Assembly: GCA_963734595.1 (NCBI GenBank)
Contig: CAVTHV010000037.1
Location: 320,214-384,213 of the forward strand
Direction: 5' to 3'
DNA: 64,000 bases
Origin: an uncultured beta proteobacterium
GTDB taxonomy: Bacteria; Pseudomonadota; Gammaproteobacteria; Burkholderiales; SG8-41
The position numbers and the translations under genes were made by a program. This document shows positions 39,846 through 47,938 of this stretch, piece after piece (within the stretch, counting starts at the first letter, position 1; each line of letters starts with the position of its first letter). The notes under the pieces were generated by a model that was given only the letters and a program-made list of their open reading frames with translations, ran no database searches and had not been told where the DNA came from.

Positions 39846-39859
39846 TTGATCCATCACAA
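39846..39859. promoter_or_regulatory. FNR-like box TTGATCCATCACAA with -10 TAAAAT at 39881-39886, between hemerythrin and the COG2403/arcC operon
   Basis: The left half-site is perfect and the right half-site has 2 mismatches. The centre at 39852.5 predicts a plus-strand -10 at 39882-39887, and TAAAAT is found 1 nt off. On the minus strand an AATAAA-like hexamer lies at 39818-39824. Confidence 0.45.
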
Positions 39860-39924
39860 AACCCTACGCGTTGCTCCGGCTAAAATCATATACGATAACA
39901 GCGTCACTTCGTAACGGATTACCG

Positions 39925-45100: not shown

Positions 45101-47938
45101 GTCTGCGAGGGCTCGGTGCAGGACGTGATGGCGCATACCACCTCGCACACCGGGCGCGCGCTGCGCGAATACGCCAAGGCGCTGAAGCCGGGTGCAGCCG
45201 AGGCGACTTTGCACGCATCGGCGATGCCTGCGGTGGTGCGCCACGACGCGATCCGCGTGCACCATGCGCGCGAGCACAATCTGCGCAACATCGATGTTGA
45301 TATTCCGCATGGCCGTTTCACCGTGATCACCGGCGTGTCGGGCAGCGGCAAGTCCACGCTTGCCTTCGACATTCTGTTCGCCGAGGGCCAGCGCCGTTAT
45401 CTCGAATCCCTCAACGCCTACGCGCGCCAGTTCGTGCAATCGGCAGCACGTCCCGACGTGGACGCCATCTACGGCATTCCGCCCACCGTCGCCATCGAGC
45501 AGCGCACGAGCCGCGGCGGGCGCAAGAGCACGGTGGCCACGCTCACCGAGATCTACCACTTTCTGCGCCTGCTCTACGTCAAGCTCGGCACTCAGTATTG
45601 CCCGGACTGCGATGTGGCGATCGCACCGCAGAGCCTGGACAGCATCGCGGCGCGCATCCTGCGCGAGCATCGCGGGCACCGCATCGGCGTGCTCGCCCCG
45701 CTCGTGGTCAACCGCAAGGGTTATTACACCGACCTCGCCAAATGGGCGGCGGCGCGCGGCCATACCCATCTGATGGTGGACGACGCATTCATCGAAACGG
45801 CGCGCTGGCCGCGGCTGTCGCGCTTCCAGGAACACAATATCGAGCTGCCTGTGGCCGACATCACGGTGAGCCCGGACAACGAAGCTGCGCTGCGCGCCGC
45901 GCTTGCTGCCGCCATCGAGCACGGCAAGGGCGTGGTGCACGTGCTGGGCAACCTGGGCGCGCTCGCGCAGGCCGTGCAGCGCAAGAGCACGGCACCAGTC
46001 CAGCTCACGCGCAGCGTGTTCTCTGTAAAGCGCGCCTGCCCATCCTGCAGCCTGAGCTTCCCGGAACTGGATCCGCGGCTGTTCTCCTTCAACTCGCGCC
46101 ACGGCTGGTGCCCGGCCTGCTTTGGCACCGGGCTCAAGCTCGACGCCGTGGGCTGGGACGAGTCGCGCGAGAAAACCGGCACCGAAGATCACGTGCTCGA
46201 TTCCTGGCTGCAATGGCTGGAAATCGACGAGCCCTGCCCCGCCTGTCACGGCCAGCGTCTCAACAAACAGGCGTTGGCGGTGCGGCTGGCCGGCGCGTCC
46301 ATTTCGGAGCTGACTGCGCGCCCCGTGAACCGGATCGCTGAATTCTTCCGCGGCTTCAAGCCCGGCGCGCGCGAAGCCGCGATTGCGCGCGACGTGCTGG
46401 CCGAACTGCGCAGCCGGCTCGGTTTCCTGCAGCAGGTGGGACTGGATTATCTGGCGCTGGACCGCGCCGCGCCCACGCTCTCGGGCGGCGAGGCGCAACG
46501 CATACGGCTCGCGGCACAGCTCGGCTCCAACCTGCAGGGCGTGTGCTACATCCTCGACGAGCCCACCATCGGCCTGCATCCGCGCGACAACCGCATCCTG
46601 CTCGACACCCTGCAGCAGCTTGAATCCCGCGGCAACACGCTGGTGGTGGTGGAACACGACGAAGACACCATACGGCGCGCCGCGCACGTCATCGACCTGG
46701 GGCCGGGCGCAGGCAAGCAGGGCGGGCAGGTGATCGCCAGCGGCACTGCGGCGGAACTGATGCGCCAGCCGCAATCCGTGACGGGCCGCTTTCTGGCGCA
46801 CCCCTTGCTGCATCCGCTGCATCCGCCGCGCGCAGTGGACAGGCACACGCCGCGGCTGATCATCGAGGATGCCCGGCTGCACAACCTGAAGCATCTCGAT
46901 GTGCGCCTGCCGCTGCAGCGCCTGGTCGTGATCACCGGCGTTTCCGGCTCCGGCAAATCGACGCTTGCACGGGATGTGCTCTACGCCAACCTGGCGCAGC
47001 AAATCGCGGCGCGGCGCACGAAAAAACAGCGGCCGCTCGCCGGGTGTGCGGCGCTGCATGGCGGAGACGACATTGGGCGCGTGCTCGAAGTCGATCAGAC
47101 GCCGATCGGCAAAACGCCGCGCTCCTGCCCGGCGACCTATGTCGGGTTCTGGGATGCGATCCGCCGCCTGTTTGCAGCGACGACCGAAGCCCGCATGCGC
47201 GGGTTCACTGCAAGCCGGTTCTCGTTCAATACCAAGGGCGGGCGGTGCGACGCATGCGAAGGCCAGGGTATACGCAAAATAGAAATGAGTTTCCTGCCCG
47301 ATGTCAGGGTGGCCTGCGAGGTGTGCGCAGGCGCGCGTTTCAACAATGAAACGCTGGCAGTACGATTCAAGGACAAATCCATTGGCGATATTCTCGCGAT
47401 GGATATCGACGAAGCGGCCGGTTTCTTCAGTGCGCATCCGCCGATACACCATGCGCTCACGCTGCTGCAAGATGTCGGCCTCGGTTATCTCACGCTCGGC
47501 CAGCAGAGCCCGACGCTCTCCGGCGGCGAGGCGCAGCGCATCAAGCTCGTCACCGAATTGTCCAAGGTGCGCGCCGATGGCGCCGACGCGGGCAACCGGC
47601 CGCGGCGGGCCGGCGCCGACCGCAGTACGCTTTACGTCCTCGACGAGCCCACCGTGGGCCTGCACATGGCGGATGTCGAGAAACTGATCCGCGTATTGCA
47701 CCGCCTGGTCGATGCCGGCAACTCGGTGGTGGTGATCGAGCACAACCTCGACATCATCGCCGATGCCGACTGGATCATCGATCTCGGCCCTGAAGGCGGC
47801 GATGCCGGGGGACGGATCGTCGCGCAGGGCGCACCGCAGGACATCGCAAAACACCCGGACCGCTCTCACACGGCGCGCGTGCTTGCCGGATTCCTTGCCG
47901 GACACGGACAACCGGATGCTGGAGACAGCGCGAAGTAA
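42176..47938 (+). pseudogene. uvrA: tandem-duplicated UvrA-like ABC ATPase (class III UvrA, four nucleotide-binding domains in one ~1900-aa polypeptide); frameshift near 44839, start region unresolved
   Basis: Half 1: IRGARQNNLKNL...[25 protein letters not shown]...LSGGEVQRI...[14 protein letters not shown]...LSGGEAQRLKL. Half 2: HAREHNLRNI...[25 protein letters not shown]...LSGGEAQRI...[14 protein letters not shown]...LSGGEAQRIKL. The two track ORFs (42124..45300 and 44837..47938) join at cttGGcgggtcat. ATG 42176 overlaps the arcC stop (ATGA) but lies in a different frame from the conserved body, which is in frame with ATG 42148. Confidence 0.8.
42946..42977 (+). repeat. heptanucleotide tandem repeat (CCTCATC) x4.6 inside the uvrA-like coding sequence
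   Basis: cctcatc cctcatc cctcatc cctcatc cctc, read directly from the sequence. It encodes PHPSSLIPHPS. Confidence 0.9.

Follow-up and report, generated by a model that had tools for sequence, protein, structure and literature searches.

A predicted arcE-arcC arginine synthetase operon behind a probable FNR-type promoter in a Burkholderiales-like betaproteobacterium

With this study, we aimed at understanding a small gene cluster in a 64,000-nucleotide stretch of DNA (the window; positions 320,214 to 384,213 of contig CAVTHV010000037.1, assembly GCA_963734595.1; 64% GC) from a mesophilic, Burkholderiales-like betaproteobacterium. Four elements lie here on the + strand: an upstream promoter motif, consisting of an FNR/ANR/DNR-type box at 39846-39859 and a -10 hexamer TAAAAT at 39881-39886, a gene of 449 codons (39925-41274), a carbamate kinase gene, arcC (41271-42220), and two overlapping UvrA-like open reading frames (ORFs) that belong to one double-length UvrA-UvrA gene (42247-47938). 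An initial annotation had treated all three genes as a candidate for an undescribed functional unit. We arrive at a different view, in which the first gene is arcE, encoding a homologue of arginine synthetase, and forms with arcC a two-gene operon behind a low-oxygen promoter of the FNR family, serving the breakdown of arginine with a yield of 2 ATP. We assign this reading a probability of roughly 0.7.

arcE and its carbamate kinase partner

The protein encoded by the first gene, listed in the initial annotation as "COG2403 GTPase-like", aligns without gaps over 440 of its 449 amino acids (aa) with protein P0335 of Thermococcus sp. 21S9, with 56% of the residues identical and 72% positive. P0335 stands for 201 proteins of Thermococcus and Palaeococcus that cluster at 90% identity, and a query with an archaeal family member (L047) recovered named proteins of Thermococcus, Palaeococcus and Pyrococcus. 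In Thermococcus kodakarensis, TK2200 (ArcE) is an arginine synthetase that catalyzes the reaction citrulline + ATP + NH3 <-> arginine + ADP + Pi (Michimori, Yokooji and Atomi, PNAS 2024, PMC11032458). The step from P0335 to TK2200 rests on the statement of that paper that arcE homologues occur throughout the Thermococcales; Betaproteobacteria are among the carriers it lists (PMC11032458). By sequence comparison, the membership of the window gene in the ArcE family and its orthology to the arcE of Thermococcales are established, and its product would presumably act as an arginine synthetase in this organism as well.

The structural data point in the same direction. Earlier annotations had TK2200 as a hypothetical protein or a putative GTPase; it shows weak similarity to cyclic-2,3-diphosphoglycerate (cDPG) synthetase (cDPGS) together with an LpxK-like structure; in the published analysis, LpxK 4EHY was superimposed on the TK2200 model and cDPGS served as outgroup (PMC11032458). 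An AlphaFold model of the window protein (pLDDT 84.4), compared with the PDB by Foldseek, retrieves cDPGS 8ORU at the top (E 2e-16, TM about 0.5, 14% identity), followed by LpxK 4LKV and 4EHY at about E 1e-7, and this succession of structural neighbours matches the description of TK2200 (PMC11032458). The initial annotation had placed the gene in the cDPG synthetase family, with a bacterial role that is unknown. We considered this candidate and rejected it: phmmer against PDB sequences finds a true cDPG synthetase at a marginal E of 1e-4 over 110 residues only, the fold-level identity is 14% and the genomic neighbourhood is that of arginine metabolism, while the orthology to ArcE extends gaplessly at 56% identity.

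The family to which the window gene belongs is very large and well conserved, with 70-80% identity among betaproteobacterial, cyanobacterial and deltaproteobacterial members and an invariant P-loop motif GCGKS. It is also poorly served by current annotation. A Pfam scan of the window protein gave zero matches and an NCBIfam scan only a sub-threshold hit to HypB (19.9 bits at a cut-off of 121); as of June 2026, neither Pfam nor NCBIfam holds an ArcE family model. In NCBI, JGI and UniRef records, homologues (P0028, P0037, P0051, P0335 and others) still go by "GTPase", "cyclic 2,3-diphosphoglycerate synthase" or "tetraacyldisaccharide 4'-kinase", and the ArcE assignment bears on these labels.

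For the genomic context, we surveyed arcE with one genome per species, taking 80 loci with 10-kb flanks from at least 596 arcE loci and calling neighbouring genes by all-ORF clustering. In 26 of the 80 loci, spread over many phyla, arcC is no more than 5 kb away from arcE; in 21 cases it follows directly downstream on the same strand, and the median gap between the two genes across the 26 loci is 27 nt. A gene for ornithine carbamoyltransferase (OTC) is found near arcE in 16/80 loci, an amino-acid permease gene in 6/80 and a gene for arginyl-tRNA synthetase (ArgRS) directly upstream in 12/80. It was this arginine-centred neighbourhood that pointed to the ArcE paper, where the enzyme had been discovered as the protein standing in for ArcA in genomes that possess ArcC (PMC11032458). 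One betaproteobacterial locus, L088, carries arcE-arcC beside universal stress protein (usp) genes, a formate/nitrite transporter gene and cbb3-oxidase (FixGHOP) genes.

ArcE, OTC and ArcC constitute the published arginine synthetase pathway, so that the carbamate kinase gene, described at first as an orphan, is the normal partner of ArcE. The observation behind that description stands as far as the window is concerned, since no OTC homologue was found in its 64 kb and no arginine deiminase domain among the approximately 45 window ORFs scanned with Pfam; what does not stand is the isolation of arcC, which recurs beside arcE. Likewise, the view that no described pathway links the gene families has been overtaken, as ArcE and ArcC belong to one and the same pathway (PMC11032458). 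Searches for homologues of ArgRS or of the amino-acid permease found none in the 64-kb window.

The 12 loci with an ArgRS gene form an arrangement of their own, with arcE about 50 nt downstream on the same strand and no arcC nearby. Eleven of them (L027, L028, L037, L049, L051, L062, L067, L069, L071, L075 and L079) come from Chloroflexota (Anaerolineae and relatives) and one (L042) from a Bathyarchaeota archaeon. This arrangement hints at a different, possibly biosynthetic, role of ArcE in those lineages.

The second gene of the window exceeds the curated cut-offs of two NCBIfam carbamate kinase models, NF009008 (465.2 bits, cut-off 361) and TIGR00746 (375.9 bits, cut-off 358.25), and on this basis is a bona fide carbamate kinase gene. 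Its start overlaps the arcE stop in an ATGA at 41271-41274. The overlap, already noted in the initial annotation, is kept in L081, L082, L083, L088, L089, L091 and L001, that is, in every betaproteobacterial relative examined. Such a conserved junction and the tight pairing of the two genes fit translational coupling, and arcE and arcC would be transcribed together.

A second ATGA, at 42176-42179, had been reported at the end of arcC, along with a short frame running to a TAG near 42218. Both are present, yet the second ATGA is, judged by alignment, an artefact, and the suspicion of an indel near the arcC/uvrA junction proved justified. Compared with L081, whose ArcE is 94% identical, a base is missing in the window between 42148 and 42149 (GGCCA^TGCGGG, where L081 has GGCCACTGCGGG); this deletion throws the arcC C-terminus out of frame and thereby generates the apparent overlap. 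As read, the protein stops at 42179 after 302 aa, ending in ...GHAGRSCARRR, where relatives read ...GHCGTIVRAPEMTLDF... up to the stop. With the base restored, it ends in ...GH.GTIVRAPAMTLDFVRRAGLPPR at the stop TAG 42218-42220 and has 316 aa, as in L081 and L082. According to the alignment with L081, L082 and L083, by which the C-terminus was set, the short frame is the true end of arcC.

Probable promoter and proposed direction of the arcE-arcC operon

Ahead of the start codon at 39925, the initial annotation had recognized an FNR-like box at class II distance from a -10 element, and these features are indeed in place, as is everything else for which it gave coordinates. The box, TTGATCCATCACAA, found by motif search, agrees with TTGAT-N4-ATCAA at 8 of 10 positions and is followed by a spacer of 21 nt, the hexamer TAAAAT, read from the sequence, and a further 38 nt up to the ATG. 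Assuming that the hexamer occupies -12 to -7, the box is centred at about -40.5. For arcE, a simple sigma-70 scan yielded no promoter, which is expected of an activator-dependent promoter that lacks a -35 element.

Boxes with up to two mismatches occur 24 times in the window where 11.7 are expected, and hence such a site alone is weak evidence. The picture changes when the composite of box (up to two mismatches), spacer of 21-22 nt and -10-like hexamer is considered: the window holds four composites against 0.22 expected, and none of 200 simulations reached this number, the maximum being two. Each of the four directly precedes a + strand gene, these being nnrS, a groEL-like gene, arcE and usp. 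Furthermore, the arrangement at arcE is conserved. In L082 (TTGATCCAAAACAA, 21 nt, TATGAT), L083 (TTGATTTAACGCAA, 21 nt, TATGAT) and L088 (TTGACATGAGTCAA, 21 nt, TACTCT), the intergenic DNA has diverged beyond alignment and ArcE is 74-81% identical, yet box, 21-nt spacer and -10 have been kept; they are also kept in L081, and L001 and L008 have comparable boxes. The geometry retained in diverged relatives, the enrichment of the composite and the position of all four sites ahead of + strand genes raise the arcE box above chance, and we consider it probable that it is a functional FNR/ANR/DNR-type site. Its regulator would belong to this family, and expression of arcE would depend on oxygen.

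The remaining three composites are worth describing. Upstream of nnrS (17021-18211; Pfam NnrS, E 6e-106), a perfect palindrome, TTGATCGAAATCAA, lies at 16938; GATAAT follows it after 22 nt and the gene after about 70 nt. This suggests a nitric oxide (NO) or low-oxygen regulon in this organism. A second perfect palindrome, TTGATTGAGATCAA at 49482, stands 22 nt before GAGAAT upstream of the universal stress protein gene (49578-50012). The groEL-like gene is preceded by a box with one mismatch, TTGATCCCAGTCAA at 22601, with TAGATT 22 nt downstream; this gene may be an FNR-controlled chaperonin paralogue. Altogether, the genes behind the four composites fit a low-oxygen or NO regulon. Two more FNR-like boxes with one mismatch each (TTGCTGCATATCAA and TTGAAAAAGATCAA, 26 nt apart, 54865-54904) are situated a short way beyond the 3' end of the FBPase gene (54967-55965, - strand).

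The arcE box also lies about 65 nt upstream of the start of a divergent hemerythrin-family gene (39386-39787, - strand) and could in principle serve arcE and hemerythrin in both directions. On the minus strand, facing hemerythrin, no -10-like hexamer is present 21-22 nt from the box. A hemerythrin gene occupies this position in the window and L081 only, and not in L082 or L083.

We thus propose the following course of events. At low oxygen, and possibly in response to NO, an activator of the FNR/ANR/DNR family bound at about -40.5 would recruit RNA polymerase to the TAAAAT promoter, and the resulting arcE-arcC mRNA would be translated as a coupled pair. ArcE would convert arginine, ADP and Pi to citrulline, ATP and NH3; an OTC encoded elsewhere in the genome would cleave citrulline by phosphorolysis to ornithine and carbamoyl phosphate; and ArcC would gain a second ATP from carbamoyl phosphate, so that 2 ATP per arginine would be available as an anaerobic, substrate-level source. 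In function, the operon would correspond to arcDABC, the arginine deiminase operon that ANR controls in Pseudomonas. It is the type of the promoter, along with the likeness to arcDABC, that suggests the catabolic direction.

Several observations weigh against this proposal. The two mismatches of the arcE box both fall into its second half-site (CACAA for ATCAA); L089 and L091 share the order of the three genes with the window but have no recognizable box; and no gene for an FNR-family regulator was found in the window. No OTC homologue was found in the 64 kb either, so that a complete pathway is a prediction, and arcC, as read, is devoid of the conserved C-terminal G-T-I-V segment. As to the enzyme, ArcE is reversible, with K about 10 at 80 degrees C, and the sequence leaves the direction unsettled (PMC11032458); physiological roles of ArcE outside T. 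kodakarensis have not been evaluated, according to the same paper, and we found no assayed bacterial ArcE in the literature.

Hence, the operon might instead run in the anabolic direction: ArcC would make carbamoyl phosphate from carbamate and ATP, OTC would form citrulline and ArcE would make arginine from citrulline, ATP and NH3, an ammonia-dependent path that would lead to arginine or carbamoyl phosphate without argininosuccinate synthetase (ASS) and argininosuccinate lyase (ASL). In vivo, the reversible enzyme sustained the formation of arginine from citrulline (PMC11032458), a biosynthetic role has been proposed for some bacteria without ASS/ASL (PMC11032458), and the ArgRS gene found directly upstream of arcE in 12/80 loci fits arginine supply in those lineages. 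Yet the FNR-type promoter, which arcE shares with nnrS and usp, indicates a regulon for energy and stress at low oxygen rather than for biosynthesis; the carbamate kinase of T. kodakarensis could not replace carbamoyl phosphate synthesis (PMC13260591); and the equilibrium lies on the side of citrulline and ATP (PMC11032458). We therefore regard an anabolic operon as unlikely, though a live rival given that ArcE is reversible, and retain the catabolic arcE-arcC operon as our preferred reading.

The adjoining double-length UvrA gene

That the third gene is a duplicated UvrA is borne out, as both halves match NCBIfam UvrA models. The UvrB-interaction domain is present only as a fragment in the first half (PF17760 positions 64-106) and is complete in the second. 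In the relatives that were looked up, UvrA-UvrA is a single protein of 1,874-1,927 aa. The window holds two ORFs instead, 42124-45300 and 44837-47938, and tblastn with the UvrA-UvrA proteins of L082 and L083 matches 42244-44844 and, after a change of frame, 44834-47908; an additional G at about 44839/44840 (in CTTGGCGGG) cuts the gene in two. The initial annotation had rightly pointed out that the UvrA body has no good start. Where L081 has its uvrA ATG, 27 nt past the arcC stop, the window reads AAG (42247-42249), and no ATG, GTG or TTG occurs in any frame between the arcC stop and the conserved UvrA N-terminus.

According to the initial annotation, arcE, arcC and the double UvrA gene may form one co-transcribed and translationally coupled unit with an undescribed joint role. 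The association was probed from two sides, from arcE with the 80 genome loci plus seven contig look-ups and from UvrA-UvrA with three look-ups. The order arcE-arcC-uvrA is indeed kept in six loci with 75-94% identical ArcE (the window, L081, L082, L083, L089 and L091), only 27 nt separate arcC from uvrA in L081 and in the window, no terminator-like site was seen between the two genes in the window, L082 or L083, and UvrA-UvrA also adjoins arcE elsewhere. Two such cases are known among the 80 diverse loci: L013 (Pseudomonadales metagenome-assembled genome, MAG; 4113-4320), where uvrA is divergent from arcE with a TTGACCCCGGTCAA palindrome between them, and L019 (Burkholderiales MAG, 5211-6229), where uvrA-uvrA, an ORF for an RtcA-like RNA cyclase and arcE follow one another. 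Neither contains arcC.

Against this stands that coupling of arcC and uvrA is not what the relatives show. uvrA there has an independent ATG, without overlap, at 27 nt (L081), 130 nt (L082), 161 nt (L083), 193 nt (L089) and 162 nt (L091) past arcC. Moreover, in four of the six trio loci (L082, L083, L089 and L091) the spacer contains a conserved element, AAAGCCGgTAgAAT, about 80 nt before the uvrA ATG, with the consensus AAAGCCG(G/C)TA(G/C)AAT (8852-8876 in L082, 3893-3910 in L083); it is likely the -10 of a promoter belonging to uvrA itself. The element is missing in the window and L081. -10-like hexamers also precede uvrA in L084, L085 and L087, which have no arcE-arcC. In fact, arcE-arcC is absent from each of the three further UvrA-UvrA loci looked up in relatives (L084, L085/L086 and L087), which have identical downstream synteny: the window and L084 to L087 have GGDEF, pirin, PNPOx, PHO4, PhoU, EamA and MFS genes in common. 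Conversely, arcE-arcC is found without uvrA in L088 and in L001, where a 52-aa UvrA-like match at the locus end, about 10 kb downstream, is all that was seen. Among the 80 loci, double-length UvrA adjoins arcE in L013 and L019 only, and the gene-neighbourhood search confines the trio to one Burkholderiales clade. The separate uvrA start of the relatives and this narrow spread of the trio are among the outcomes that the initial annotation had itself named as refuting its model.

The three-gene unit was accordingly rejected as a general association from the arcE side as well as from the UvrA-UvrA side, and as an account of the window it is improbable. Gene order indicates that UvrA-UvrA is a syntenic neighbour in a separate conserved block, outside the arginine unit; in the simplest history, the uvrA synteny block was there first, and the arcE-arcC module adjoins it or was inserted at its side. 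For the lineage of the window and L081 only, read-through from the arcE promoter into uvrA is plausible because the spacer is 27 nt, the promoter-like element is gone and a terminator-like site was not seen.

The lesions might also be real and arcC and/or uvrA-uvrA pseudogenes of a decaying locus. Three of them (the arcC frameshift, the missing uvrA start and the uvrA frameshift) fall within 2.7 kb, the change from ATG to AAG, being a substitution, is less typical of assembly errors than an indel would be, and the promoter-like element upstream of uvrA in relatives is absent in the window. However, breaks of this kind are not peculiar to the locus. The groEL-like gene (MAAKQLLFH..., 22601-24247 including its box) encodes residues 1-208 at 22675-23298 and residues 181-524 at 23216-24247 in another frame, and GC3 frame-tracking reveals about 8-10 same-strand frame switches in the 64 kb that resemble single-base indels (at about 8690, 11170, 12200, 20840, 23230, 26770, 26950, 35000 and 57330), among them the split of a P-type ATPase around 8686-8699. 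The assembly of the window thus appears indel-prone and its ORF boundaries, as read, unreliable. Besides, both uvrA halves are, outside the indels, 72-73% identical to intact relatives, full-length and free of internal stops, and in L081, the relative at 94%, both arcC and the uvrA start are intact. Given the like frame breaks in the groEL-like gene and at the other junctions, faulty assembly is the most likely source of the lesions in arcC and uvrA, and decay of the locus is a doubtful explanation.

A functional tie between double-length UvrA and ArcE, in which a low-oxygen or nitrosative-stress module would supply ATP from arginine to an ATP-hungry DNA-surveillance ABC ATPase, and in which uvrA, whose promoter-like element the window lineage has lost, would depend on the FNR-type arcE promoter alone for its expression, retains a very slight chance because UvrA adjoins arcE in three arrangements (the window clade, L013 and L019).

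Relation to known systems

The closest known system is the arginine synthetase pathway of T. kodakarensis, formed by ArcE (TK2200), ArcB (TK0871) and ArcC (TK2158), with a yield of 2 ATP per arginine (PMC11032458; follow-up PMC13260591). The window gene falls into the ArcE family of Thermococcales, its product has LpxK and cDPGS as structural neighbours just as TK2200 does, its partner is a bona fide carbamate kinase gene and, like arcE of T. kodakarensis, whose three pathway genes are scattered, it has no OTC gene beside it. The differences lie in the host, which is bacterial and mesophilic, and in the arrangement of arcE and arcC as an overlapping bicistron behind an FNR-type promoter.

With cDPG synthetase (Methanothermus fervidus; PDB 8ORU, 8ORK, 9SXB), the window protein shares a related P-loop fold, as the top PDB fold match, and NCBI names many members of the ArcE family "cyclic 2,3-diphosphoglycerate synthase". 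The context of the window gene is nevertheless arginine metabolism, and not 2-phosphoglycerate kinase or cDPG metabolism.

As for UvrA, Goosen and Moolenaar in 2008 reportedly described classes of UvrA paralogues, including a class II without the UvrB-binding domain and a duplicated, double-length UvrA. The window gene resembles these in that both its halves match UvrA models and its relatives encode one double-length polypeptide, but it is interrupted and lacks the start codon that its nearest relative uses. Our literature search on double-length or class III UvrA was unproductive, with matches mostly to UVRAG or to "UvrA2" in the sense of the UvrA dimer. The link to UvrA, which had given the locus its exotic look, does not hold up.

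The arginine deiminase operon arcDABC of Pseudomonas aeruginosa depends on ANR, an FNR-family activator that acts from a class II site near -41.5. The predicted operon of the window would have in common with it the arginine-fuelled, substrate-level synthesis of ATP, an FNR-family activator and the same last step, carbamate kinase. Unlike arcDABC, it would begin with ArcE, which conserves energy and brings the yield to 2 ATP per arginine, where the hydrolytic ArcA allows 1 ATP; and arcA, arcB and arcD were seen neither in the cluster nor in the window.

In summary, the arcE-arcC bicistron behind an FNR-type promoter, and the same composite before nnrS, usp and the groEL-like gene, lead to the prediction that anaerobic arginine fermentation in some Burkholderiales follows the 2-ATP arginine synthetase route, in place of the classical ANR-controlled arginine deiminase operon. 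The recognition of arginine synthetase dates from no earlier than 2024 and is so far limited to a hyperthermophilic archaeon, and the locus provides a concrete bacterial case. Set beside the systems compared above, it adds a bacterial member, with a promoter that is plausibly anaerobic, to a pathway described not long ago, and is not a new kind of system.

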